Both the position numbers and the translations under genes were made by a program. 64,000 nucleotides of DNA from an uncultured Planctomycetales bacterium (GTDB taxonomy: Bacteria > Omnitrophota > Gorgyraeia > Zapsychrales > Fredricksoniimonadaceae): NCBI GenBank assembly GCA_964643325.1, contig CAZXSE010000001.1:84780-148779 (forward strand), read 5' to 3'. The notes beneath the pieces are model-generated. The model searched no databases, was not told the DNA's origin, and saw only the letters and a program-made list of their open reading frames with translations. Shown here in pieces: positions 7,118-35,701 of the stretch (positions within the stretch are counted from its first letter, which is position 1; each line of letters opens with the position of its first letter).

Positions 7118-7633
7118 CTACTTCTTTTCTTCCACCGGCGTTGTCGCCGCAGCCTCGGAGAGCGTCTTGGCCTGCTGCACAAGGACCCCCAACAGGATCG
7201 TGGCGCGTTTTTCTCCGCCTTCATCCTTCTTCTCGCGATAAAGATCAATACTCTTACGCGCGGAAATGATCGCCGGCATCAACTCTCCGGCACTTTCATA
7301 AGCCATGGCAAAAAGATAGTATGTCACAGGATTATCCGGGAATTTTGCGACCGCCAGGTTCAGGACACCCTTGGCCTGCTCGAATTGCTTGAGCCGGATG
7401 AATGTCTCGGCAAGCATGAAATAAGCTTCCGCGTAGTCCGGGGCTGTTTTGATCGCCGTCGCAAAGTTCTGCACGGCATTGACCACTTCCCCCTGCTTGA
7501 GCATGACAACGCCCTGCATCAGAAGCTGGCGCGCCTGTTCATTGGCTGCTGTTGCCGAAGGCGCCTTCTGCCCGCAGCCGGCCAGCATGCCCGCGGCGAC
7601 CACCATCACCATGATACCCAATGCCCTTCTCAT
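7118..7633 (-). CDS. TPR-repeat lipoprotein
   Basis: Signal peptide with the lipobox MLAGC (MRRALGIMVMVVAAGMLAGCGQ), followed by TPR-like helices (AIKTAPDYAEAYFMLAETF...). Confidence 0.75.
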   Translation of the reverse strand: MRRALGIMVMVVAAGMLAGCGQKAPSATAANEQARQLLMQGVVMLKQGEVVNAVQNFATAIKTAPDYAEAYFMLAETFIRLKQFEQAKGVLNLAVAKFPDNPVTYYLFAMAYESAGELMPAIISARKSIDLYREKKDEGGEKRATILLGVLVQQAKTLSEAAATTPVEEKK

Positions 7634-21998: not shown

Positions 21999-24900
21999 TC
22001 ATTGCAAGATCGTCTTGACCGGCATGATGTTAACAATGACCGGCGTGAACCCGGCAACGCCTTCGGCCTTGATGCGTTCGATAACCGCAGGGTCGACCTT
22101 CACTGTAACGGCCTCATTCGTACGCTCGATCTTCAAGTTCAATGCCGCGAGATCAAAGTCGATGCCGCCGAGATCTTGGGAGGCCGCTATCTGCGGCAGG
22201 ATCGCCTGTGACAATCCCGCATCGCGCCCCGTGACAACCGATGCGTTCAACCACCCGAAAACGCGCCGCGCCTCAAGAACGGCATGTTCCGGCGAATCAG
22301 AACCATGTGTTGCATTGCGCATTAAGTCGCCCGGCACCCCGAATCGGGGGCGGATCACATCCTTCATGAGCGCCCTCAGCTTCTCGACAGCATTATTGCC
22401 GGACTTTAATGTCAGGAACACGGGGATCACCTGGCCTTCCCCGGAAATATAATCGACCAGCTCCTGAAAGAACGCTTTTCCGGCATGAACATCATAGAAT
22501 TCCTTTGCCTGTTCCGACGTCAACACCATCGCCGGCGCCGTGATCACGTCAAACCCCGCATCACGATACTCCTGAAAGATCGCCTCTTTGTTCTTGACGC
22601 CGTCGGGCTTGATCATGGCGTAAACAGCCCGCCCTTCACGCGCATTCTTAAGGAAATCATGTTGGAATATCGCCAAAGAGGTCACTGCCGCGGCATCGGC
22701 CGGCTCGGGCGCATCCGCAACATTCTCCAAAAGGCTCTGTGCGGCATCAATCGTTGAAACAGTGACATCCCCCTGTTCATTGACCACGACATGCACATCT
22801 TCCAGAATGATCTTTCCGTCGGGCATTAACAGGAAGTCTTTTTTGTGCTCGTTCAAGTCCACTTCCGACCCGGTGTTGTTCTCTATCAAGACCTTGCCGC
22901 GCAAGATCGCATCTTCGAACTTCACCACACCTTTAATACTGATCTCTTTTAACGCGTCGACATTCGCATGTCCGAACGCATCCATGACATTCTGGACATC
23001 TTCATAATATTTGTCCATGCTGCCAAAGCCCGGCAGGCTGCCCGGATTATTATTGACCAGTCTCCACGTAGCTGTATCGATCCTGAAATACCCCGAGTCG
23101 GCATACAGCCAATGGTCCCACGCATACTTGACCGGCGTAAAGAACGTTTCTCTTTCATCCGTATCCGCATTGACAACATAAAGCAAGCGTTCAAATCCAT
23201 ACTTCTTCATCAGACCCCGCACCTGAGGATCCTCTGTGGTCACAGCAAAACGATTGATGTTGAGCAACGCAGAGCCCATCGCGCCCTCAAGCTGGATCAC
23301 TTTCTTCTTCTCCGGACCCTTCAATTTTTCGTTCAGGATAAGGTCCGGCGTCACGATCTGCGCAAACTTGTTCGGCCCAATGATGTCGTAAAGCTCCTTA
23401 AGGAACGGCTGAAGAACGGAATAATTAACAAGCGCGATATTAGTATTAAAAAGCTGTCCGCCAGGCTCACCCGTCGTAAGCCCCATCTCCGCAAAGATCT
23501 TCTTCTGGTCATCCCCACGCACCTGTCCAAGCTCGAGCATGTCGGTCACATACCCGCCCTGGGCAAGCTTCTCACCGCCGATCAATCCGCCTTTCTTATC
23601 CAAGGCAGTCTTCGTGGTCGATATCATGACGATCGGGACTTTCTTGTCTGCCATCCAGCCGACAATATAAGGATCCGGTGCATTGTTCGTACCATCGCCA
23701 TTATAAACAGTGCGGATCAGGATCTGCCCTTCCGGAAGCTTTGCGGTCAACGCATCCTGCAGGACCATGCTACCCAACTGCCCGTGCCCACCCGGAGCAA
23801 GAAATTCATCTGTCATGGAATCTGTAGCAATGTCAATGACCGGCAAAGATGCCTGAACGATCTCAGCCGGGATCTCAATATTGTTCTCTGCTAGGACCTG
23901 CCGGTACGTTCTCTTGGCTAACTGCGGCAATTGGCCGTTGAGACGGTCCCGGAGATAGATCGTTTCATTCAGGAACTTTTGCATCGGCTCAAGGCTCTCG
24001 GAATTGACCAGCTCCTGCATGATCACCTTGCCGTAATCCCCGGCTGTGTGCAAGACCTGCAGATATTTAAGCTCTGTCGTGCTCACCGGAACTTTGGTAA
24101 CAACCACCGGATCACCATTCTCATCAACTCCCGACAGATCAAGAAAGAAATACAGGTCCGTTCCTTTGGCCCCGATCTTGTCGCGCCCCAACTGTTCCTT
24201 CAAATAACGCTCGCGGGCCACGCTCGTGCCAAGCCCGCCGTTCATCTCATCCGCCCAAAGCACAACACTCTTCGCGGCCGCCAGATTCTCCTGCAGGCGC
24301 ACCTGCGTTTTGTAATCTTTAGCCCCCAGGAACTTGTCCCTGTCCTCAGGCGTCATGCGCGCGGAAGGCAAAAAGTTCTTGTCGATAATAAGCTGTTTCT
24401 CCTGGCCGGGATTCTTTTTCATCCAGACATATTTCGCGAACAGCCCCTCCAGATAACCTTTATCAAATTCAGCCAGCCGGAGCTTATCCGCAAAAACATT
24501 CACGTCCGTGCTCATCGTCGGCACAGACGCATTGTCCTCTGCCATGTCCGCCTGGATGACCGCGACCGTGACCTGATTTAATTCCCCCGTCGATACCTGT
24601 GCCGCCCCCGGGATCTGGGCAGCGTCCGCAACCTTGTGCACGCCTACCGTGGCCGTCACCTGGGCCAGGTCCACGCCGCCCGAAAAATACTGCCGCGGCA
24701 CAGTTGCCTGCGTCACCGGGTCCGTGTCTTCCTTTATATAGTTGAATACGCCTTCCTTGTAAGCCGCCACATACCGCTCATAGATTTTTTCTTTATCCGA
24801 CGCATCCTCTGCGGCAACGCCCGCCACCTTGCCCTGATCCGCGTACACCTGGGATAACAAACTTTCCTTTAAATTCTTCTTATACCAGGCCGCCAGAATG

Positions 24901-25721
24901 AGCGCCTGATAGACCTGGCGCAACAAAGCAAAATTCTTACCCGTGTTAACTTCCTTCTCGATCTCGGGAAGAATGACCTGGCGCATGGCATCGGCAGACA
25001 CTTGCGCGGATGCCGCGGCAATATCCGTGTTGACCCCTTCAGTGCCGGCGTTCATTCTGCGTGAAAGATAATCCTGTTCCATCATGACCTTCAAATGACT
25101 GGCCCCGACAACCGCCGTACCATTGACCTCATAGACCGTGGCGCTCTCAGGCATGATCCATACTTTATTGAATGCATTCGCCGGAAGGTCCGCCGAGCCC
25201 AGGACTTCACGCGCCTTGGCATAAACGCGCGACCAGAATTCTTTTCCGAGCGTCGTTTCCGGATAGATCATGGACGCGGAAAGCTGTTTCAGGACATAAT
25301 CCTGCGCCAGCAGGTCGCGGCCCATCTGCGTCTGGCCGAACGACTCGGCTGCAATGCGGTCTTGCTCGTATGGCGAAAGGTTCACCCAAAGATCTTTTTC
25401 AGGAATGGTCAGCGCGGCGAGAAAATATTTTACCAGCTTCCTGGTCTCCGCCTTGAGCATGGCCTGATCGGCCTGCGTGTTCCCGCTGTCCACAATAAAA
25501 TCAAAGACCAGCGGCTGATCAGGATGGACCTTGACTGCGCGCAGCATGACCGGAACATAAGCATCCGATACATTGAGCATCTGCCCCGGAACCGGGAGCT
25601 CCATCACGCTTTGCGCATATGTGGTGGCAGGCAAAATAAAGCTCGTGGAAAAGAAGACCGCGGCCTGAACAAGAGAAATGCAACGGAAAAAAGAATTCCT
25701 GCGGATCCTGTGTGCTGACAT
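21999..25721 (-). CDS. 1240-aa multidomain protein: signal/anchor sequence, unassigned ~430-aa region, UDP-sugar pyrophosphorylase (UDPGP) domain, nucleoside-diphosphate kinase domain, unassigned ~85-aa tail
   Basis: N-terminus MSAHRIRRNSFFRCISLVQAAVFFSTSFILPATTYAQS. UDPGP motifs: ADEMNGGLGTSVA, LAPGGHGQ, YNGDGTNNAPD and TALDKKGGLIG (about aa 470-990). NDK motifs: YAMIKPDGV, FYDVHAGKAFF and RNATHGSDSPEHA (about aa 1030-1155). The tail contains GGIDFDLAALNL...GFTPVIVNIMPV. The SD GAGGGAGAG lies upstream. Confidence 0.8.
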   Translation of the reverse strand: MSAHRIRRNSFFRCISLVQAAVFFSTSFILPATTYAQSVMELPVPGQMLNVSDAYVPVMLRAVKVHPDQPLVFDFIVDSGNTQADQAMLKAETRKLVKYFLAALTIPEKDLWVNLSPYEQDRIAAESFGQTQMGRDLLAQDYVLKQLSASMIYPETTLGKEFWSRVYAKAREVLGSADLPANAFNKVWIMPESATVYEVNGTAVVGASHLKVMMEQDYLSRRMNAGTEGVNTDIAAASAQVSADAMRQVILPEIEKEVNTGKNFALLRQVYQALILAAWYKKNLKESLLSQVYADQGKVAGVAAEDASDKEKIYERYVAAYKEGVFNYIKEDTDPVTQATVPRQYFSGGVDLAQVTATVGVHKVADAAQIPGAAQVSTGELNQVTVAVIQADMAEDNASVPTMSTDVNVFADKLRLAEFDKGYLEGLFAKYVWMKKNPGQEKQLIIDKNFLPSARMTPEDRDKFLGAKDYKTQVRLQENLAAAKSVVLWADEMNGGLGTSVARERYLKEQLGRDKIGAKGTDLYFFLDLSGVDENGDPVVVTKVPVSTTELKYLQVLHTAGDYGKVIMQELVNSESLEPMQKFLNETIYLRDRLNGQLPQLAKRTYRQVLAENNIEIPAEIVQASLPVIDIATDSMTDEFLAPGGHGQLGSMVLQDALTAKLPEGQILIRTVYNGDGTNNAPDPYIVGWMADKKVPIVMISTTKTALDKKGGLIGGEKLAQGGYVTDMLELGQVRGDDQKKIFAEMGLTTGEPGGQLFNTNIALVNYSVLQPFLKELYDIIGPNKFAQIVTPDLILNEKLKGPEKKKVIQLEGAMGSALLNINRFAVTTEDPQVRGLMKKYGFERLLYVVNADTDERETFFTPVKYAWDHWLYADSGYFRIDTATWRLVNNNPGSLPGFGSMDKYYEDVQNVMDAFGHANVDALKEISIKGVVKFEDAILRGKVLIENNTGSEVDLNEHKKDFLLMPDGKIILEDVHVVVNEQGDVTVSTIDAAQSLLENVADAPEPADAAAVTSLAIFQHDFLKNAREGRAVYAMIKPDGVKNKEAIFQEYRDAGFDVITAPAMVLTSEQAKEFYDVHAGKAFFQELVDYISGEGQVIPVFLTLKSGNNAVEKLRALMKDVIRPRFGVPGDLMRNATHGSDSPEHAVLEARRVFGWLNASVVTGRDAGLSQAILPQIAASQDLGGIDFDLAALNLKIERTNEAVTVKVDPAVIERIKAEGVAGFTPVIVNIMPVKTILQ

Positions 25722-25859: not shown

Positions 25860-27188
25860 TTAGGGATAGAGAAAAAGGGCCTTGCGCTCATCGGAAGAAT
25901 TATAGACTTTGACTGCAGAAGAAATGCCGATGATCCTGGCTGCAATGCGCTTCTTTTTCAAATAGCGCAGGGCTTTAGGAGAGAATGTGAGCCGTTTATG
26001 TTTTCCAAGGACCACAAAAAGAACATCCGGCCCTTTTTTAGTCAGTTCTTCCACAAGGTCGCTGGTGATATGCGGCGGCACGAACTCCTCGGGCTCCTTG
26101 AGCTTGCCGTCAGCCCGGATATACAAAGGCTTCTCGATCTTGACCTTGCCTGCCATGATCCTGCCGGCAGAGGTCATCCTTAATTTCGGATAATACGAGG
26201 CCGTCAACGCCTTAAGGTCAATGCCCATGCGCGCCGCGGCCACAGCGCCGAGCATCACGGCATCATCCCCCAACTTAGCGGCAACAACTTTAGGGACGGG
26301 CAATCTTTTGAAGAACGGGTCTTTCTTCAAAGCGCTCTCAACTCTGGGCAGAAAAAAATCCCCGCACGCCTCGATCACGCCGCCGCCAAAAATGAACATC
26401 TCCGCATTAAAGACATGGTTCAATGTCACGCACGCGTGCGCCAGGGTTTCCGCCGCATGGGCCATGGTCCGCGTCACCAGCGGATCCTTGGCTTTCAACG
26501 CTTTGGCCAGCGTGCTGCTCTTGATCTGCCTGAACTTCGGGCCCGCCAGGTCCGTGATGATGGTCTTGGCGCCCTTTTTGATGGCCGCGCGGATATCGCG
26601 CTCAATGGCCCAGCGGCCTGCAACAGCCTCAAGGCATCCGGTATTGCCGCACGTGCACTGCGGCCCCTTGGGATCAACGCAAATATGCCCGAGCTCGGCG
26701 GCCGCGCCGTTACGTCCCGTGACCAGCATGCCCTTGACAATGACCCCGCCGCCAACGCCCGTTCCAGGAAAAAGCCCGATGATGTTCTGCGCCCGCGCCC
26801 CGGCCCCGAGCCACTTCTCGCCCATGACGCCGAAATTCACGTCATTGCCCACGGCCACGCGGACCTTATATTTTTTCTCAAGGACCTTCTTAAGGTCAAC
26901 CCCGCCCAGATCAATGTTCGGCGTCACCACGACCTTGCCGTCATTATCCACAATGCCCGGGACCGCAACGCCAATACCCAGCACTGCGTGGAACGGGACT
27001 TCCTTGGCCCGCAAAAGCTCCCGGACCAATTTCTCAATGACGCCCAAGACCTCTTTCACGCCCGCGCCCGGCGGAGTGGCCTCTTTGTGCTGGGCAGCAA
27101 TGGACCCCGAAGGCGTCACAAGCCCACCGTAGACCTTGGTCCCGCCCACATCAATGCCGATAAAATATTTCTCACTCTGACTTTGCAT
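25860..27188 (-). CDS. ROK-family glucokinase fused to a ~120-aa C-terminal Mth938/DUF498-like domain
   Basis: FIGIDVGGTKVYGG (ATP-binding site) and the ROK zinc motif CTCGNTGCLEAVAG. The ROK core ends near aa 320. The extra tail (PDVLFVVLGKHKRLTFSPKALRYLKKKRIAARIIGISSAVKVYNSSDERKALFL) resembles the Mth938 fold pattern. Confidence 0.85.
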   Translation of the reverse strand: MQSQSEKYFIGIDVGGTKVYGGLVTPSGSIAAQHKEATPPGAGVKEVLGVIEKLVRELLRAKEVPFHAVLGIGVAVPGIVDNDGKVVVTPNIDLGGVDLKKVLEKKYKVRVAVGNDVNFGVMGEKWLGAGARAQNIIGLFPGTGVGGGVIVKGMLVTGRNGAAAELGHICVDPKGPQCTCGNTGCLEAVAGRWAIERDIRAAIKKGAKTIITDLAGPKFRQIKSSTLAKALKAKDPLVTRTMAHAAETLAHACVTLNHVFNAEMFIFGGGVIEACGDFFLPRVESALKKDPFFKRLPVPKVVAAKLGDDAVMLGAVAAARMGIDLKALTASYYPKLRMTSAGRIMAGKVKIEKPLYIRADGKLKEPEEFVPPHITSDLVEELTKKGPDVLFVVLGKHKRLTFSPKALRYLKKKRIAARIIGISSAVKVYNSSDERKALFLYP

Positions 27189-27203
27189 AGATCCTTTGAT
27201 GTT

Positions 27204-27334
27204 TACTCGACAAGATGTCTGCAGTCCATGTCCCGTGCGAGTTCCGCAGGCCGTTCCACCAAATCATCTTATTAGAAAAAGGCCGAGGACTGTCTGAGCA
27301 CCGGGACATGGACAAAGACAGATCTTGTCGAGTA
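27204..27334. other. Long imperfect inverted repeat (hairpin A, 131 nt)
   Basis: 27204-27216 (tactcgacaagat) pairs with 27322-27334, and 27224-27235 (gtccatgtcccg) pairs with 27302-27313. Shorter inner pairings include GGCC at 27249-52 with 27281-84. The apical loop is about 28 nt. Confidence 0.6.
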
Positions 27335-27338
27335 TATA

Positions 27339-27458
27339 CATGTCGCTGGCGGCTTTTGCCATGCCTCGGCGCTCAGCAGAGAGCGGCCTTTCTTAATTTA
27401 CGGGAAGCCGCTCTCTAATTCGCGCCTCGGGCATGGCAAAATCCGCTATCGCGACATG
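27339..27458. other. Long imperfect inverted repeat (hairpin B, 120 nt), 4 nt from hairpin A
   Basis: Paired blocks are 27339-46/27451-58 (8 bp), 27349-52/27443-46 (4), 27354-65/27430-41 (12, ttttgccatgcc), 27368-72/27422-26 (5) and 27378-87/27407-16 (10, agagagcggc). The apical loop is about 9 nt. Confidence 0.6.
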
Positions 27459-27511
27459 CATCGAAACAACCTTATGAATTACACCAAAGCCGCCAGCAAC
27501 ATGCAAATCAT

Positions 27512-28831
27512 CTATTGCGTCACGCTTATAATAACATGCCGCGAAAAAGCGCGCTCGAACAGATCGCTTTTGATCTTTCCAAATTCAAGCTCCGCCGCGA
27601 TATCCTTACAGGCAGTCAATCCTATTGTAACGTTATCCGTTCCCGCTTCAACCGTAATATCGCTGACCAGGCCCTGGTGCGTGCGATCAAGCCCGTCGGC
27701 CAGGCGTACGATCCCGCCGAGTCGTTCGACCATGACTTTGTGATGATCGGGCAGTGCCGCGAAATATTGATGGCCGGGCTTGGGCAGGGACTTGCGGTGG
27801 TAGCGTGCAATGAGCGCCACGACCGCGCGCTCACGGTCCGCCAACGGCAGCGTCCTGTCCTCAAGGATCATGTCGCGCGAAGCCTTGTGATGCCCGTCGG
27901 CGCCACGCATGATCCCGATATCGTGCAAGAGCGCCGCGGCCTGCAAGAGCGCCCGCTGGCGTGCGCCATAACCATGCACGGCGTGCAATGCGTCAAAGAT
28001 CCTCAATGACAATGACGCCACCTGCAGCGCGTGCGGCTTTTCATAGCGGCAACGCTCGCCGAACCTGAGGGCCTCTTCGATCAGATCGCCTCTCACGTCT
28101 TCCGGCACCACATCCGCCGGAGAGCATGCCCCGGTGAACGCCTGGACAAGGACCCGTGGGAATCCCTGTGCCTCCATTTCCCTGACAACAAGGGCCATGT
28201 CATACGCCACACGGTGGTTGGCCACGCCAATGCCGGCCGGCGTGATCTCGAGCAAAGAGAATGACGCGCGCCCGTCGCCGCCAAAAGGCCTGCCGACAGA
28301 CCCGGGATTGACCAAAAGCGTTGTGCCGATCTCGCGCGAAAAAGCGTCATGCGTGTGGCCGGCGCAAATGATATCCGCATCCGCCCCCCGGGCCATCTCA
28401 ACAAGGCGCTCTTGCGGCGTATGCACCGTGATCCCCTCATCGGCACTGGCCGGACTGCCATGGACCAGGAGTACCCGGCGGCCATGCGCATTCACACGCA
28501 GGATCTCCGGCAATCCTTTAAGATGGTCCACAACATCCGGCGCTAGCATCTTGTGTGTCCATGCAAAAATAAAAGTTTTATAGGCCTCTTTTGCGTTGTC
28601 GAGGATCTTCTGGACTTTCGCGGCGGAAACGACCTTCGCGTCGTGATTCCCGGAAATGATATATTGCGCCTTCTCGCGGATCAGGCGATCACATTCATTG
28701 GGGAACGGGCCGTAACCGACCACATCCCCAAGGCACCAGATCGCGTCATAGGACGTGGCGGCCGCGGCGGCAAGAACAGCCTCGAGGGCCGGAAGATTGG
28801 CGTGAATATCAGCAAGAAGAAGGATCCTCAT
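27512..28831 (-). CDS. Metallophosphoesterase (YfcE/MJ0936-type) fused to a Ppx/GppA-type C-terminal HD domain
   Basis: I place the start at MRILLLADIHANL, an ATGA overlap with the CHAD gene stop. MPP motifs: DIH, GDVVGYG, GNHD and GHTHD. The C-terminal half carries LLHDIGI and ARYHRKSLP, as in the C-domain of exopolyphosphatases. Confidence 0.8.
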   Translation of the reverse strand: MRILLLADIHANLPALEAVLAAAAATSYDAIWCLGDVVGYGPFPNECDRLIREKAQYIISGNHDAKVVSAAKVQKILDNAKEAYKTFIFAWTHKMLAPDVVDHLKGLPEILRVNAHGRRVLLVHGSPASADEGITVHTPQERLVEMARGADADIICAGHTHDAFSREIGTTLLVNPGSVGRPFGGDGRASFSLLEITPAGIGVANHRVAYDMALVVREMEAQGFPRVLVQAFTGACSPADVVPEDVRGDLIEEALRFGERCRYEKPHALQVASLSLRIFDALHAVHGYGARQRALLQAAALLHDIGIMRGADGHHKASRDMILEDRTLPLADRERAVVALIARYHRKSLPKPGHQYFAALPDHHKVMVERLGGIVRLADGLDRTHQGLVSDITVEAGTDNVTIGLTACKDIAAELEFGKIKSDLFERAFSRHVIISVTQ

Positions 28832-29709
28832 GAATCGGCAAAACGGTCCAGTTTCGCCCAGATCTTCGCGCGCTTCTGGGACTGCCACAGCTGCACGAAA
28901 TCCGCGCACGCCGCGGCCCTGGCTGTTTCACATTCCCGGCGGAGGAACCGCAGGGCTTCGGAAAAACGGTTGCTGCGCCCGGAACTCGCGCGCAGGATGC
29001 CGAGAAGTCCCAACCAGACGTCATAACTATGGACCGCGCCCAGGGCCGCCTGGACATCCGCGGCCGCCTTAATATGAACGGCCAGCTTCTTGCCGTAAAG
29101 CAATTCGAGGTTCTCAAGGCAGTAACGCAGGTTCTTCGCGGCAATGCGCATCTGATGGAGTTCGGTTTCCCGGCGGGCCTTCTTGACATAAGGCTCCCAG
29201 CGCAGCATCTTCTCGAGGCGGACCGTGATGCGATTCTTGCCCCATTCATCAAGGGTGATCTCGGCGAACGCCAGATCCGGGCTGAGCTTCTCAATGGCGC
29301 GGAACACTTTTTCCCGGCGGGCGCGGTCAAAGGCCTTCGCGATCTTGGGCTGGACCTCGGCCCGGTCCTCAGCGATCTCGTCAATGATCTCACGGATCCC
29401 TGCGGCGTATGCCTTAGCGTGAGGCGCGGCGGCCATGCCCCGCAGGAACGCGATCTTGGTGTCCATGTCGCGCGCATGGCCCAGGATGCCCAACAGCGCC
29501 TTCACCCCCTCGATCGGGAGCTGCAGCTGCCGGCGGGTCATCACATCCTTGATATCCGAGAGGATGCTCTTTAAACGGCGAAGCGCCACGCGCATGCGAT
29601 GCAGCGCCTCGATATCACCCTTGGCGCGGCGCACCGCCTTTTCCTCATCGAGCGCCATGGTCAAATGGCCCTGGATGATCTGTGAAAAGAATATCTTCTC
29701 GTCGAGCAT
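28828..29709 (-). CDS. CHAD-domain protein
   Basis: I place the start at MLDEKIFF, a 1-nt overlap with the ppk stop (TGATG). Repeated His/Arg helices (ALHRMRVALRRLKS, LHQMRIAAKNLRYCLE) are typical of CHAD. Confidence 0.8.
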   Translation of the reverse strand: MLDEKIFFSQIIQGHLTMALDEEKAVRRAKGDIEALHRMRVALRRLKSILSDIKDVMTRRQLQLPIEGVKALLGILGHARDMDTKIAFLRGMAAAPHAKAYAAGIREIIDEIAEDRAEVQPKIAKAFDRARREKVFRAIEKLSPDLAFAEITLDEWGKNRITVRLEKMLRWEPYVKKARRETELHQMRIAAKNLRYCLENLELLYGKKLAVHIKAAADVQAALGAVHSYDVWLGLLGILRASSGRSNRFSEALRFLRRECETARAAACADFVQLWQSQKRAKIWAKLDRFADS

Positions 29710-31739
29710 CAGCTGTATCTCCCCAGGAACGCCTCCTGAACGCTGAACTTCTCCTTCGCCGCTTTCGCAAGAACATACTTGCGCCCCGCCACAAGTTCGC
29801 GCGCGCGCTGATTGTCCTTCCAGCAATCCTCCAGGACCCCGCGCAGCTGGTCCTTGAAGTCCTGCTTGTAGATCTCGAACAACAGCTCGATGCGCTTGTC
29901 AAAATTACGGCTCATCCAGTCGGCAGACGACAGAAAAATACGGAAATTCGAATTGTTATTGAACAAAAAGATCCGCGAATGCTCCAGGAACCTGCCGATC
30001 ACGCTCTTAACCTGGATATTCTCGCTGAGGCCCGCCACGCCGGGAACGAGGATGCAGATGCCGCGCACCACAAGGCGGACCTTCACTCCCGCGCGGGATG
30101 CTTCATAAAGTTTATCAACGATCTTCGTATCCTCCAGCGAATTCATCTTCGCGAAGATCAGGCCGGTCTTGTATTCCTTGTGGAACGCGATCTCCTGATC
30201 GATCAGTTCCATGAAATATTCCCGCAGGTCATAGGGCGCCGAGATCACCCGCTTCCAGCGCGCCGGCTGGGAATATCCGGTAATAACATTGAAAACATCC
30301 GAAATGTCGCGCGCAAAATCATCATTGCACGTGAAATAACCGATGTCCGTATAAAGGCGCGCTGTCTTCTCATTATAATTACCCGTGGACAAATGAACGT
30401 ACCGGCGGGTCCGGCCCTCCTCGCGGCGGATGATGAGCATGATCTTGGAATGGATCTTCATGCCCGCGATGCCGTAAATGACATGGCAACCGGACTCCTC
30501 GAGCTGGCGGGCCCAGTTAATGTTGCGCTCCTCGTCAAAGCGCGCCTTGATCTCGACAAGAACGGTCACCTGTTTCTTGTTCTTGGCCGCGAGCTTGAGC
30601 GCGGTCATGATCTCGGAATCTTCGCTCGCCCGGTAAAGCGTCATTTTGATGGCCAGCACATCGGGATCGGTCGCCGCGGCCTTGATCAGGTCCACGGTCG
30701 GCTGGAACGATTCGAACGGCATCTGCAGCATCAGGTCATCTTCCCTGATGCGGTCGAAAATATTCTCGTAAGCGGGCCGGGGCGGCACATGGGCCGGATA
30801 TGATAACCGCGCCTCCGGGACCTGGGCGGCCAGCTGGAACAGGAATGTCAGGTCCATCTCGCCGGGAACGAACGCCACTTCTTCTTTCGGGAACGCAAGC
30901 GCTTCGGTCAGGACATCCAGAAGCCCGCCCGCGCAATCCTTCTCAACAGCCAGGGCCACCACTTTCGCGCGCGGGCGCTTCTTGATCTCGCTCTCGATGG
31001 ATGTCAGCAGGTTCGCGGAAAATTCCTCATCCACCGATAGCTCGCTATCGCGGATCAGGCGGAACAGGGCCGCGCTCTTGATCTCATAACCGCGGAAGAA
31101 GTTCTTAAGGTTGTCCCGCAGGATCTCATCCACCAGGATGAACTCGTGCGTATCGCGGGACGACGGAAGCTTGACCAGGCGCGCCACATTCGCGGGCACC
31201 GGAATGACCGCCAGATGCATCTCATCCTTGCGCTCAAGATGCACGGCATAGGATGTCGTTCTCGACGGAAGGACGGGAAAGGGATGCCCCTGGTCAATGG
31301 CCATGGGGGTCACGATCGGATACAAGGTCGCGTCAAAGAAACGTTTGACGAATTTCTGCTGGTCCTCGTTCAGGTCGGCGCCCCGGCGCAACAGCACCTT
31401 CTCTTTCGCGAGCGCGGGCTTGAGCTTCTCCTCGTGGATCCGGTACGCTTTTTGGGTCAGCTCCTCCACGCGGCGGCGCACCTCGGCGTGGACATCCTGC
31501 AGGTAATAACCGTAATTGTCGCGGCGGTTGTACTGCGCGTCGATCAAGTTCTTCAGGCCCGCGTAACGGACCATCAGGAACTCGTCGAGATTGTTCATGA
31601 AGATGGCCACGAAGCGCGCGCGCTCGAGCAAAGGATTGTCCGCCTCAAGCGCCTCATCAAGGACGCGCTCATTGAACATCAGCCAGCTGATGTCGCGGTG
31701 GATGTACTTGTCCTGGTCCTGAAGCTGTTTTTCCGCCAT
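29709..31739 (-). CDS. ppk: Polyphosphate kinase 1
   Basis: 676 aa with the PPK1 N, H, C1 and C2 layout (RFVAIFMNNLDEFLMVRYAGL, phosphohistidine region, two PLD-like C domains). Confidence 0.95.
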   Translation of the reverse strand: MAEKQLQDQDKYIHRDISWLMFNERVLDEALEADNPLLERARFVAIFMNNLDEFLMVRYAGLKNLIDAQYNRRDNYGYYLQDVHAEVRRRVEELTQKAYRIHEEKLKPALAKEKVLLRRGADLNEDQQKFVKRFFDATLYPIVTPMAIDQGHPFPVLPSRTTSYAVHLERKDEMHLAVIPVPANVARLVKLPSSRDTHEFILVDEILRDNLKNFFRGYEIKSAALFRLIRDSELSVDEEFSANLLTSIESEIKKRPRAKVVALAVEKDCAGGLLDVLTEALAFPKEEVAFVPGEMDLTFLFQLAAQVPEARLSYPAHVPPRPAYENIFDRIREDDLMLQMPFESFQPTVDLIKAAATDPDVLAIKMTLYRASEDSEIMTALKLAAKNKKQVTVLVEIKARFDEERNINWARQLEESGCHVIYGIAGMKIHSKIMLIIRREEGRTRRYVHLSTGNYNEKTARLYTDIGYFTCNDDFARDISDVFNVITGYSQPARWKRVISAPYDLREYFMELIDQEIAFHKEYKTGLIFAKMNSLEDTKIVDKLYEASRAGVKVRLVVRGICILVPGVAGLSENIQVKSVIGRFLEHSRIFLFNNNSNFRIFLSSADWMSRNFDKRIELLFEIYKQDFKDQLRGVLEDCWKDNQRARELVAGRKYVLAKAAKEKFSVQEAFLGRYS

Positions 31740-31740
31740 G

Positions 31741-33273
31741 TCACACGTTCCCGCTGATGCTGAGTTTCAAGCGGCTGCCCGTGATCCTCTCGAACAGTTC
31801 TTTCTTGTCGTTGAATTCGGTCTTCTCGAGAAGGAAATTCGCCTGGGTGCTGACCTCAATGGTAATGTCGCTGGTGTCCGCGTGCAAAACTTTGACGCCC
31901 TTGGATTTCTGCAAATGCCCGTGATCGAGCGCGTTGGCGATACGCAAGAGCGATGCCAGTTTCTGCACCACGATCTGCTTGTCCTCCGCGAGGCTGTTGT
32001 AAAGAGGATGCGACTTCGACGGATCGCCCCGGCGGTGATAGCGCGCGGCGCAGGCGATCATCCGGATCTCCTCGTCGGTCAAACGGAACAGGTTCAGGGA
32101 ATTGATAATGTATTCCGAATGCTTGTGATGCGAGCGGTTGGAAATGAACTTGCCGATATCGTGCAGGTACGCCGCCAGCATCAGGTATAAAAGATCGCTC
32201 TCCTCAAGCCCCAGCTGAACGGACAGCCCCTCGAAAAGGCCTTTGGCGATATGCGCCACATTCTTGGCGTGCTCGATGTTGACATTGTATTGTTCACAAA
32301 TGGCGTGCGCGACCGACATCAGCTGATTCGATTTGTTATAGCGCTTCGACAGTTCAAGCCCTAAAACCTTATTGGCCAGCACTGCCTCGGCCAGCGACGT
32401 TTCCAGAATGTAAACATGCGGATTCTCGGTGAGTGTAAAGAACATCTTGAGGATCACCATATAGGGCAACAGCGTTTCCGCGCTGTCCCGCGGCAGGTCA
32501 TACTCCGCGGCGATCTCCTCGGGCGACTTGCCGGCAAGCCCGCCAATGATGCGCTCCACATCAGCCACCGTGAACTGGAAAAAGTTCGTCGCGACCTTTT
32601 TGTTGGGCAGGATGGCCTTGAGGTATTCCTGGTTCTCGTCGATGAGAAAAATGTCGTCCACATGCGCGCGCGGCAGGCGGCTGCGAAAATGATCGAACTC
32701 GTTGGCAATATACTCCTGCACGACCTCGGCAAGTTCCTCGCGGCTGCCGTCAACACGGCTCAGGATCTGCTTGAAGCGCAGCGAGCCCAGGGCCAATCCC
32801 ATATTGATCACGGTAAAGCCCTTCTTCAGGAGCGACACATCAAGGCTGCCCGCGCCCATTTCGCCGATCAGCAGGTTCTTGTTGTGGACCGGATAGGTGT
32901 CCTTGAGCTTATGCGAGATATAGGCATCAATGTAATAAACAATGTCGCCGACATTCAGGACCTCGATCTCAAGGCCGGTCTTGCGGCGCACGGTATCAAC
33001 GAAAATGTGGCGGTTGGAAGCTTCGCGCACCGCGGTGGTCGCGATGACAAAGACCTGCGCGATATTATATTCCCTGATGACCTTCTTGTATTTCTCGAGG
33101 ATGCCGATGGTCAGGTTGATAGGTTCCTGGGAGATCTGCCCCTTGAGGAACGTCGAACGCCCGATGGGCACAACGTTCTTGAGCGCCTCCAGGATCATGA
33201 TCTCCCCGTCGACAACCTCACCGATAAGGAGTTTGATCGAATTGGAACCGATATCAATGACGGCGGCGGCCAT
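31741..33273 (-). CDS. ppx: Exopolyphosphatase / GppA family
   Basis: AAVIDIGSNSIKLLIGEV (ASKHA fold) plus a C-terminal HD region (YLHDIGKFISNRSHHKHS). It ends 1 nt before the ppk ATG. Confidence 0.9.
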   Translation of the reverse strand: MAAAVIDIGSNSIKLLIGEVVDGEIMILEALKNVVPIGRSTFLKGQISQEPINLTIGILEKYKKVIREYNIAQVFVIATTAVREASNRHIFVDTVRRKTGLEIEVLNVGDIVYYIDAYISHKLKDTYPVHNKNLLIGEMGAGSLDVSLLKKGFTVINMGLALGSLRFKQILSRVDGSREELAEVVQEYIANEFDHFRSRLPRAHVDDIFLIDENQEYLKAILPNKKVATNFFQFTVADVERIIGGLAGKSPEEIAAEYDLPRDSAETLLPYMVILKMFFTLTENPHVYILETSLAEAVLANKVLGLELSKRYNKSNQLMSVAHAICEQYNVNIEHAKNVAHIAKGLFEGLSVQLGLEESDLLYLMLAAYLHDIGKFISNRSHHKHSEYIINSLNLFRLTDEEIRMIACAARYHRRGDPSKSHPLYNSLAEDKQIVVQKLASLLRIANALDHGHLQKSKGVKVLHADTSDITIEVSTQANFLLEKTEFNDKKELFERITGSRLKLSISGNV

Positions 33274-33274
33274 G

Positions 33275-35701
33275 TCAGGACACCTTGACCTTCAGGATGT
33301 CGGCAAGGTCCGTGAACGCCGCGACCCAGCGCGCGGCGTATTCATCCTGCCCGGCCGCGGCGCTCTTGGCGCGGTAACGGTCCTGGGCCAGGGCGTAAAA
33401 AATATTCTGCGCTTTCCAGAGATTCAGTTCCATGCGCAATTCAAACAGGACCCTGATCACCTTCGCCATCCGCTCCATGAGCAGGACATCGTCCGGCGAC
33501 TGCATGAATTTGGCCAGCATGGCGTCAACGCGGGCGGAAGCGATAAAATCAAGATCTTCTTTGTCGCGCTTGAACGGCCAGCTGCGGACCTCGACCGCCA
33601 GGCGCTCCAGCTTCTCAAGGGGGATCTCCTCCTCGTTCAGGAAGCGCCGCAAGTCGCAATTAAGCACATATTCCGCCAGGCTCCCGAGCGTCTTAGGCAG
33701 CGGGATATGGTTCTCGTGGATCATGCGGATCAGCGCAAAATGATCCTCGTAAATATGCCGGAAAGAAGATTCCACCTCGGCCATCGTATTATCAAAGATC
33801 TTGTCGAGGATCATCTGCTGTTCCTGCTTGAACAGATGCCACAACGAATAATTCCGGGTCCCGAAATACCGGCTGATGGACTGGATCGCGCGCGGGATGT
33901 CGCCCTCGTGGAAAATACGGCTGACCTCCCTCGAAAGGCGGTCAAAGGTCGCGTCATCCTTGTAATAATCAACGCCGCAGATGAAATTATGGTCCCCCAG
34001 ATGCAGGAGCGCAAAATACACATCGAACGATGTCCACGTCACCTCGGAGATGATCTCGGTCCGCCCGACGACCAGCGACATCTTGCCGATCGCCTGCTTC
34101 GCGTAACTCTTGCGGCGGATCGTAAAACAGTACAGCTTGGCCTCCTCGGCAAAGTCCTCGAAGAGCGAGCTCATGGCATAGTGGGCGCCCACGCGCAGGA
34201 TATCAACGACCGACGGCTCCACATACACCTTGTAGATGCGCGCGCCATTATTGGCCTCCGGCACATTGCTCTTGGCCTTACCCAGCACCTCCAGGAAGGC
34301 CAGGTCCAGGTCTTCGTCGCAAACGCGGCGGACCAGCTGGATCACACGCGCGGCATACTTGATGATCTGAACCGTCTCGATGCCCGAAATATCGTCGAAG
34401 AACCAGCCGCAGCTGGTGTACATCAAGAGCGCGTTGCGCTGGATCTCCAGGCAGCGCAAAACCCTGTTCTTGTCAACAAAAGCCCTGTCCTTGCCCAGGT
34501 AGCGGGCCAGGAACGCCTCCATGTTCTCCCGGCGGCGGTCAAGGACCACGTCGATATAGGCATCGCGCATGGCCCACGGGTCCGCGACATAACCGGCCAT
34601 CTCGCGTTCATACGTTTTAGCGGCGCGGTCGCGCAAAAAATCCAGGGCCTGGCGCAACGGGGCGCGCCACTGCTGATGCCACCCGGGCTTACCGCCCGAA
34701 TTGCAGCCGCAATCGTCGCGCCAGCGCTCGATGCCGTGAATGCAGCTCCAGGAGCTGTTCTCAACGATCTCGACCTCATACTCCGGCGGATGTTTTTCCA
34801 GGTACTCGCCATACACCGTCAGCCGCGCGCGGTCCTTCTGTTCAATATAATGAAGCGCGTACGCCAGCGCCATGTCGCCGAACTTGTGGTGATGCCCGTA
34901 GGATTCCCCGTCGGTCGCGATGTGCACCAGCTGGTCGTTCTCCGGATGTTTGTCAAAAGCGCCGAGGATCCGCTCCGCCAGCTTCTCGCCATTGTGCAAA
35001 AGGCCTTCGAACGCGACCGCGCGCGAAATGGGCCCGTCATAAAAAAAGATCGCGATCGTCCGGCCCGACGGCAGCTTGCACAGATAGGGGCGCCGCAGAT
35101 CGATATGCTCTTCATCCGACGGGTCCCAGGCGCGATTCTCGGAAAGTTTCCTGGCGCGCTTGGCCTGATGGGGCGCCAGCACCGTGAACTTGATGCCGCA
35201 CTCAGCCATGATATCCAGGCTCTCCAGGTCAACGGCCGCCTCGGCCAGCCACATCCCCTCCGGCATGCGCTGGTAACAATGCTCAAAATCCTTGATCCCC
35301 CAGATGATCTGCGTGCGCTTGTCGCGCGTGTTCGCCAGGGGCATGATCATGTGATTGTAAACCTGCGCCATGGCCGCGCCATGGCCGGAAAAACGCTGGC
35401 GGCTTATCTTGTCAGCTTCGAGGATGGCACGGTAGGCTTCGGGGTCCTTGTGCTCCATCCACGAAAGGAGCGTCGGCCCGATGTTGAAGCTGATCTTTGA
35501 ATAATTATTGATGATCTCATTGATGCGGCCATCAGCGCCCAGGATCCGGGAGGCGCCGTTACGGGCATAACACTCGGCGGTGATCCGCTCGTTCCAATCA
35601 TGGTAAGGCAGCGCGGACTCCTGCAGCTCGACTTCCTCAAGCCAGGGGTTCTCGCGCGGCGGCTGATAAAAATGCCCGTGGATGCAAACGTATCTATTCA
35701 T
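33275..35701 (-). CDS. Glycoside hydrolase family 57 protein with a long C-terminal extension
   Basis: It has the N-terminal GH57 signature (CIHGHFYQPPRENPW) and the catalytic region ATDGESYGHHH. Its 808 aa include about 400 aa beyond the GH57 core. It ends 1 nt before the ppx ATG. Confidence 0.85.
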   Translation of the reverse strand: MNRYVCIHGHFYQPPRENPWLEEVELQESALPYHDWNERITAECYARNGASRILGADGRINEIINNYSKISFNIGPTLLSWMEHKDPEAYRAILEADKISRQRFSGHGAAMAQVYNHMIMPLANTRDKRTQIIWGIKDFEHCYQRMPEGMWLAEAAVDLESLDIMAECGIKFTVLAPHQAKRARKLSENRAWDPSDEEHIDLRRPYLCKLPSGRTIAIFFYDGPISRAVAFEGLLHNGEKLAERILGAFDKHPENDQLVHIATDGESYGHHHKFGDMALAYALHYIEQKDRARLTVYGEYLEKHPPEYEVEIVENSSWSCIHGIERWRDDCGCNSGGKPGWHQQWRAPLRQALDFLRDRAAKTYEREMAGYVADPWAMRDAYIDVVLDRRRENMEAFLARYLGKDRAFVDKNRVLRCLEIQRNALLMYTSCGWFFDDISGIETVQIIKYAARVIQLVRRVCDEDLDLAFLEVLGKAKSNVPEANNGARIYKVYVEPSVVDILRVGAHYAMSSLFEDFAEEAKLYCFTIRRKSYAKQAIGKMSLVVGRTEIISEVTWTSFDVYFALLHLGDHNFICGVDYYKDDATFDRLSREVSRIFHEGDIPRAIQSISRYFGTRNYSLWHLFKQEQQMILDKIFDNTMAEVESSFRHIYEDHFALIRMIHENHIPLPKTLGSLAEYVLNCDLRRFLNEEEIPLEKLERLAVEVRSWPFKRDKEDLDFIASARVDAMLAKFMQSPDDVLLMERMAKVIRVLFELRMELNLWKAQNIFYALAQDRYRAKSAAAGQDEYAARWVAAFTDLADILKVKVS

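Follow-up and report, generated by a model that had tools for sequence, protein, structure and literature searches.

A polyphosphate/sugar gene cluster runs along the minus strand of the 64-kb stretch of DNA analyzed here (the window), in the order GH57, Ppx/GppA, PPK1, CHAD, Metallophos-HD, spacer, ROK glucokinase and UDPGP-NDK. The first two genes, of the GH57 type (33275–35701) and the Ppx/GppA type (31741–33273), are named by their position in the gene order of relatives, and are followed by PPK1 (29709–31739) and CHAD (approximately 28828–29826). The last gene of the polyphosphate cluster before the spacer (27512–28909) combines Metallophos and HD (Ppx-GppA domain III) domains, with Pfam matches PF12850/PF00149/PF21447/PF01966. 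Its product has a C-terminus of normal length, which in alignment ends at the same point as those of its orthologues. Downstream of the spacer, a ROK-family glucokinase fused to DUF498 (25860–27188) precedes a UDPGP-NDK fusion of 1240 amino acids (21999–25721). The Metallophos-HD and ROK/DUF498 genes, both on the minus strand, stand in a conserved operon order. The ROK protein of the window is a singleton; its nearest homologues all come from Candidatus Omnitrophota MAGs, the next relative being only 78% identical.

The spacer between these two genes measures 323 nt (27189–27511) and reaches from the TAG stop codon of Metallophos-HD (27512–27514) to the ATG of ROK/DUF498 (27186–27188), coordinates that bear out the non-coding gap described between the polyphosphate operon and the glucokinase gene in a first-pass annotation of this DNA. 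It is plausibly the largest non-coding stretch of the window, the other big gaps being spanned by long open frames in what is a crude map of open reading frames. Its GC content is 0.50–0.52, versus approximately 0.60–0.65 in the flanking genes. Open reading frames lying wholly inside it are short (67 amino acids at most), with no transposase gene within either of the hairpins described below, and comparison of its six-frame translation with 5.8 billion predicted protein clusters returned nothing at E-values up to 10. At its downstream end, a Shine-Dalgarno sequence read from the DNA, AAGGA (27196–27192, minus strand), precedes the ROK start codon (27188–27186).

Inverted-repeat search and folding agree on two rod-like hairpins set 4 nt apart in the spacer, with the block lengths that the earlier annotation had given. 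Hairpin A is an imperfect palindrome of 131 nt (27204–27334). It is closed by a perfect terminal block of 13 bp (27204–27216 / 27322–27334; TACTCGACAAGAT / ATCTTGTCGAGTA) and contains a second perfect block of 12 bp (27224–27235 / 27302–27313). Hairpin B, an imperfect palindrome of 120 nt (27339–27458), consists of blocks of 8, 4, 12, 5 and 10–13 bp; its termini pair over 8 bp (CATGTCGC / GCGACATG), or over 22 nt if a complementarity of 86% is accepted. The 4-nt junction between the two, TATA (27335–27338), is the center of a higher-order symmetry relating A to the reverse complement of B, rc(B). On the other side of B, a non-palindromic linker of 27 nt (27459–27485), for which the minus-strand fold predicts nothing beyond a small local hairpin, leads to a solo arm. 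A and B are the sole long local inverted repeats in the 64-kb window.

The predicted folding energies of hairpin A are −63.3 kcal/mol on the minus strand and −61.4 kcal/mol on the plus strand (z-scores of −7.9 and −7.6), and those of hairpin B are −75.8 and −77.6 kcal/mol, respectively (z-scores of −10.7 and −11.3). The z-scores refer to 200 dinucleotide-preserving shuffles, none of which folds as well as A or B (0/200); the whole spacer gives values of −10.5 and −11.6. A preference for the plus strand had been proposed from the pairing near the tip of B. In both hairpins the gap between the strands is below 2 kcal/mol; it favors the minus strand in A and the plus strand in B, and that argument fails. 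An RNA that had been shaped on one strand is expected to favor it, and the near-equal energies on both strands point to an element that is palindromic as DNA.

At the gathering threshold, Rfam returned no match anywhere in the window. A permissive search of positions 27000–27700 (E-values up to 10) gave sub-threshold matches of the miRNA type only, the best of them mir-281 with 26.5 bits versus a gathering score of 70. Sub-threshold miRNA-like matches are given by any long hairpin. A tRNA/tmRNA scan of the window was also negative. A 6S-RNA-like rod was considered and discarded, as Rfam gave no 6S match, the fold has no two-sided central bubble, and the structure is not conserved in relatives. 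An integron attC site was likewise set aside: neither of the core-site patterns, RYYYAAC and GTTRRRY, occurs in 27150–27560, and the flanking genes form a conserved operon and not cassettes. The very stable folds could be taken to indicate an independent small RNA gene, for which the promoter, the terminator, the Rfam match and the conservation are all missing, or else an artefact of assembly. Fold-back assembly chimeras are perfect inverted copies of adjacent DNA, whereas the arms of these hairpins match imperfectly and do not copy the flanking sequence. We consider a small RNA gene or an artefact extremely improbable.

The two hairpins proved not to be independent of each other; they are homologous in opposite orientation, a relation absent from the earlier annotation. 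In local alignment, A(+) and rc(B) are identical at 36 of 47 positions (27271–27317 against 27353–27397), with a score of 19 that none of 2000 shuffles reaches, palindrome-preserving ones included. The alignment of A(+) with B(+) scores 7, against 19 for rc(B), which places the copies in alternating orientation. The segment of A homologous to rc(B) (27271–27317, plus strand) contains an arm motif of 24 nt, CTTTNNCCATGNCNCGGNGCTCAG, found at 27294–27317 (minus strand) and at 27353–27376 (plus strand). With up to three mismatches allowed, the motif occurs in the window exactly twice, in these two arms only, versus 0.01 occurrences expected by chance. The A arm at 27294–27317 is 79% complementary to the B arm at 27353–27376. 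Of the arm, the homology takes in the inner three quarters, together with the loop-proximal AAAGGCCG, and the outermost 13–17 nt differ.

The 12-bp core helix is GTCCATGTCCCG / CGGGACATGGAC in hairpin A and TTTTGCCATGCC / GGCATGGCAAAA in hairpin B. Three aligned positions differ between the two and, as read from the sequence, every difference has its counterpart in the partner arm, both helices staying perfect. These mirrored changes fit three models equally well, namely concerted evolution of the arms through quasi-palindrome correction, selection for pairing, and derivation from distinct symmetric master copies; with two sequences alone, the models are inseparable.

The solo third arm, B' (27486–27503), was detected by inverted-repeat search and by blastn (94.4% over 18 nt). 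It repeats the B arm at 27437–27458 in direct orientation, with divergence, and is complementary to 27339–27356 at 17 of 18 positions. The outer arm of B (27339–27356) has two possible partners, 27437–27458 or, 49 nt further on, 27486–27503, and the MFE and centroid folds alternate between these two outer pairings. Via B', the inverted repeat extends to 27334–27356 / 27486–27508; palindromic DNA reaches approximately position 27508, about 3–6 nt from the stop codon.

The first-pass annotation had found no second copy of the hairpin arms elsewhere in the 64 kb, and motif search and blastn both confirm it. An 11–13-nt match of the A terminus at 33796–33808 lies inside the GH57 coding region and was attributed to chance. 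Among approximately 185,000 GTDB representative genomes, a collection that does not include the source genome, no dispersed copy of the 24-nt motif was found. The two matches obtained there, in a cyanobacterium and in Albidovulum, are located inside long open reading frames, are not hairpins, and were dismissed; their number is close to the chance expectation for 19 specified bases. The motif was absent from viral contigs, the spacer had no blastn match among plasmids and phages, and no copy of A or B was present in approximately 150 kb of related Omnitrophota loci. The known copies are two related hairpins and one fragment, all at one site, in a source genome examined over 64 kb. The literature searched yielded no small palindromic repeat elements described for Omnitrophota.

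A search for target-site duplications gave TA/TA at the ends of A, which is inseparable from the palindrome, and a 4-nt ATGT, which is chance-expected given the end shifts tried; none was found for B. The target-site duplications of MITEs may decay with age (PMC10969869). Neither flanking genes nor the rest of the window hold a donor sequence for the arms, and approximately 300 nt at lower GC are more easily explained by imported DNA. Both observations argue against a local, non-mobile origin, in which template switching or inverted duplication would have produced a quasi-palindrome, with an inverted copy around TATA and a partial copy B', all of it junk. Such an origin is consistent with the lack of any other copy in the collections searched, which in the source genome covered only 64 kb, and of a convincing target-site duplication. 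It would also fit the resemblance of A(+) to rc(B), by which A and B together form a larger palindrome centered on 27335–27338, the different outer ends of A and B, and a 10-nt direct repeat shared between the loop of A and the region of the stop codon. We regard a local origin as unlikely, though it deserves serious consideration.

A comparison of the Metallophos-HD/ROK junction with its counterparts in relatives reveals large differences. The gap between the two genes is 4 nt in P0002, whose ROK protein is 78% identical, and in L015 (TGA TCTT ATG), and 7 nt in L001 (ROK 72% identical; TAA GGATATT ATG). In L003–L006 and L010 it is approximately 127 nt long and contains an unrelated stem-loop of 46 nt. 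In L016, L017 and L011 it measures approximately 60 nt; a GC hairpin of 10 bp comes first, then TGGACA-18-TATAAT (11/12) just upstream of ROK. The two genes are separated by an open reading frame of 179 amino acids with no Pfam match in L018, and by a gene of 501 amino acids in L019 and L020, and the gene order is rearranged in L021. Compared with the junction hairpins of L003, L015 and L016, neither A nor B scores above shuffles. In this clade the junction is exceptionally variable, with different lineages carrying hairpins, a promoter-like site or genes.

The gaps of 4–7 nt in relatives, the same end of the Metallophos-HD protein and the start context AAGGAT-N2-3-ATG, which is retained in the window and whose AAGGAT also precedes the ATG in L001, together show that the approximately 300 nt separating stop codon and Shine-Dalgarno sequence are a lineage-specific insertion. 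Of all the evidence, this comparison of junctions weighs most. Absence of the structure from orthologous spacers had been named beforehand as a result that would speak against a regulator. It is what the closest relatives display, and it counts against a conserved local regulator.

This comparison bears on the possibility that the hairpins form a selected cis-acting RNA module in the operon mRNA, be it an intercistronic stabilizer, an RNase III or other processing site, or an insulator. A module of this type would shield the polyphosphate genes from 3' exonucleases, offer a site for RNase III, or set the output of glucokinase independently. Three lineages, those of the window, L003 and L016, do independently have a stem-loop right behind the stop codon of Metallophos-HD, but the hairpins of these lineages are unrelated in sequence and size, and the closest relatives, with their 4–7-nt gaps, have none. 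The mirrored changes that keep the helices of A and B perfect are consistent with a module; however, mirrored changes also arise unselected, through quasi-palindrome correction, and the pairing displays no strand preference. The predicted fold of the spacer leaves its last 15 nt unpaired, and with them the ROK Shine-Dalgarno sequence, which begins 7 nt below hairpin A's base. The two outer stems that B can form as alternatives begin 6 nt past the stop codon, where a ribosome that terminates would melt them. These two features also agree with a module. The ends of the spacer, i.e., the stop-codon region and the Shine-Dalgarno/AUG region, are complementary at 10 of 12 positions (−12 kcal/mol, better than 98.7% of shuffles). 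Segment pairs taken at random from genomic DNA do as well in 40% of cases, however, and an end-to-end closing helix was rejected as evidence. We judge a selected RNA module to be unlikely.

The spacer was also inspected for signals of transcription. The terminator scan found only an internal 5-bp stem (27370–27385) on the plus, non-coding strand. The scan and a reading of the sequence agree with the earlier statement that no U-tract follows either hairpin on either strand, and the hairpins are not intrinsic terminators. A consensus promoter/terminator scan of the spacer was negative, with a consensus that may not suit Omnitrophota. The TATACT hexamer that had been singled out as a possible promoter element is present at 27336–27331, but no acceptable −35 element lies upstream of it. 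By reading, no −35 hexamer is better than 2/6 and, the consensus scan being negative too, a promoter at this position was rejected. These results weaken a further explanation, in which the spacer would be the boundary of two transcription units: hairpin B would end or insulate the polyphosphate unit without a U-tract, the TATATACT box (27338–27331, minus strand) would be the promoter of glucokinase, and hairpin A its structured 5' leader. The TATACT/TATATA box is positioned exactly between the hairpins, and the L016 junction, with its GC hairpin and the promoter-like site upstream of ROK, offers a parallel. The poor −35 match and the missing T-run argue against such a boundary, as does length, since all intrinsic terminators known to us are far shorter than these rods of 120 nt. 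We consider it very improbable.

The reading that we favor, with a probability of about 0.55, is that the spacer represents a small cluster of MITE/REPIN/ERIC-like palindromic elements, a lineage-specific insertion that is transcribed with the operon and folds out of its mRNA, the mobility of the elements being putative. Among the four candidate readings offered by the first-pass annotation, the decayed MITE-like element gains from the absence of the hairpins in relatives, the homology of A and B, and their neutrality with respect to strand, while the independent small RNA falls for lack of a promoter, a terminator and an Rfam match. Effects on the operon mRNA as a 3' stabilizer, a processing site or a structured leader, the remaining candidates, are possible as secondary roles. 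The hairpins are thus most likely a new two-copy representative of a known type of element, and not a conserved regulator.

Bacterial palindromic repeats are typically found in transcribed intergenic DNA, and the transcripts of MITEs form stable stem-loops (PMC10969869). Hairpins A and B have the terminal inverted repeats, the size (131 and 120 nt), the lower GC, the intergenic location and the stable stem-loop fold of MITEs. Their termini, however, are the least conserved part and the inner arm is shared, whereas in typical MITE families the termini are best conserved. We therefore withhold the assignment to MITE proper, considering the diverged termini, the known copies all standing at one site and the lack of a convincing target-site duplication.

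REP/BIME/REPIN sequences are extragenic palindromes clustered in alternating orientation, between cistrons and at the 3' ends of operons. Inverted doublets of REP form hairpins of approximately 100 nt, and are the classical barrier to 3' exonucleases that stabilizes upstream mRNA, as in the malE-malF REP. The REPIN model, in which REP doublets form hairpins, is reportedly due to Bertels and Rainey. The spacer resembles these systems in its clustered copies of alternating orientation, A and B being oppositely oriented, and in the adjoining solo arm. It differs from them in that REP units measure approximately 35 nt, are highly repeated and are tied to a RAYT (Y1) transposase, while the spacer is known from one site.

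Correia elements, which have a TA target, end in TA...TA, as does hairpin A. The Correia elements of Neisseria (CREE/NEMIS) are described as non-coding palindromes of approximately 100–155 bp that lie between genes or inside operons, are co-transcribed and form long hairpins (PMC2649163, PMC10969869), all of which applies by analogy to A and B. RNase III can cut or protect them, and promoters may arise at their termini (PMC2649163, PMC10969869). No sequence similarity links the spacer to Correia elements, which number in the hundreds, have conserved termini of 26 bp and contain an IHF site. By contrast, the spacer has two related copies known and termini that are unlike each other, and RNase III or promoter roles would be ascribed to it by analogy.

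ERIC elements are imperfect palindromes of approximately 127 bp in transcribed intergenic DNA, with a copy number that varies strongly between taxa (PMC10969869). When located at the 3' ends of genes they affect mRNA decay (PMC10969869). ERIC belongs to another phylum and its consensus is absent from the spacer, whose copies stand at one site. Identity with ERIC was rejected, as blastn of the spacer (word size 11) against 5,426 E. coli genomes gave no match. Finally, quasi-palindromes corrected by template switching share with A and B the mirrored, symmetry-preserving differences between arms and the lack of strand bias. This process explains the upkeep of a palindrome but not the source of 300 nt of new sequence.

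Under the favored reading of a small cluster of palindromic elements, the ancestral junction would have been tight, and probably translationally coupled, within a polyphosphate/sugar operon. The insert would consist of A and B, full copies that have diverged and face opposite ways, and of the solo arm fragment B', and would be co-transcribed on the minus strand within the operon mRNA. Each copy is predicted to fold into a rod and, with approximately 300 additional nt looped out in this way, the single-stranded ROK Shine-Dalgarno sequence may remain near the upstream stop codon in space, which would explain why the insertion is tolerated. Any function would be secondary; the long, near-perfect helices (12–13 bp) could serve as substrates of RNase III or as barriers to 3' exonucleases, in the manner reported for Correia and ERIC elements. 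Processing or protection of this kind could shift the ratio of polyphosphate-gene mRNA to glucokinase mRNA.

A bolder proposal is that selection maintains the paired rods as an RNA device, or else that they are the first examples of a REPIN-like family restricted to Omnitrophota, with concerted evolution of the arms; this we consider distinctly improbable. As a device, approximately 300 nt folded out of the mRNA would hold the stop codon beside the glucokinase ribosome-binding site and so preserve coupling. As double-stranded sites of processing or stabilization, the rods would determine the ratio between transcripts for polyphosphate metabolism and for glucose phosphorylation. The mutually exclusive outer stems of B (27437–27458 or 27486–27503, each with 27339–27356) might be toggled by the ribosome that terminates 6 nt upstream.

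If the insertion is an ordinary palindromic one, its importance is local. It would then indicate that the junction of a conserved polyphosphate/glucokinase operon, normally abutting and probably coupled, tolerates approximately 300 nt of self-folding DNA, and that elements have landed or innovations arisen at this place repeatedly within Omnitrophota. A dispersed family, if true, would be new for Omnitrophota and could provide a strain marker. Wider interest would come only with transcript mapping that revealed processing or effects on coupling. A minor observation concerns the annotation of the upstream gene: its orthologues begin, in alignment, at residue 27 of the open reading frame, and the true start of Metallophos-HD is thus probably the ATG at 28831.

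In loci L016, L011 and L017 of Omnitrophota relatives, the stop codon of the Metallophos-HD gene is followed immediately by a 10-bp GC hairpin, GGGGCGGGTT-CTA-AACCCGCCCC, which is accompanied by a promoter-like site (positions 2938–2988 of L016, and likewise in L011 and L017). The site in L016, TGGACA-18-TATAAT, is located 3' of the hairpin and close 5' of the ROK ATG, and constitutes a near-consensus sigma-70 promoter (11/12). The Metallophos-HD/ROK junction in this lineage looks like a transcription-unit boundary. Inserted whole genes occupy the same junction in loci of other relatives, a 179-aa ORF in L018 (2448–2987) and a gene for a 501-aa protein in L019 (1006–2511), with no Pfam match on record for either product.

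Within the window, short sequence relationships occur in and around the spacer that separates the two genes (27189–27511). An exact 10-nt direct repeat, CAAATCATCT, is present on the plus strand at 27504–27513, where it overlaps the Metallophos-HD stop codon, and at 27260–27269, in the loop of hairpin A (27204–27334). The repeat, with a chance probability roughly estimated at ~0.05, may represent a trace of insert formation. The two spacer ends, 27187–27198 and 27504–27515, are complementary at 10 of 12 positions, such that the stop-codon region pairs with the Shine-Dalgarno sequence and AUG of the ROK gene. The resulting duplex (−12 kcal/mol) is better than 98.7% of shuffles; compared with genomic segment pairs it is unexceptional, as 40% of these are equal or better.

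A rod-like imperfect hairpin of 149 nt is found directly 3' of the ROK stop codon in locus L003 of an Omnitrophota relative (7353–7501), and recurs with identical sequence in L004–L006 and L010. The rod, which yields folding z values of −5.3/−6.9, is unrelated to the hairpins of the window. Intergenic spacers of this clade may repeatedly carry long rod hairpins.

The mechanically called Metallophos-HD ORF begins with GTG on the minus strand and carries an extra N-terminal stretch (28832–28909). All orthologues begin 26 codons further downstream, with MRILLLAD, and translation probably starts in fact from the ATG at 28831. The glucokinase gene (25860–27188, minus strand) encodes a ROK protein with a C-terminal DUF498 domain, a fusion common to many homologues from Omnitrophota and Elusimicrobia, and three relatives (P0007, P0011 and P0012; 691–730 aa) are annotated as ROK and Metallophos fusions. 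Directly adjoining it on the downstream side is a minus-strand gene (21999–25721) for a 1240-aa protein that joins UTP-glucose-1-phosphate uridylyltransferase to nucleoside diphosphate kinase, an unusual two-domain fusion that fits the theme polyP to glucose-6-P to UDP-glucose.
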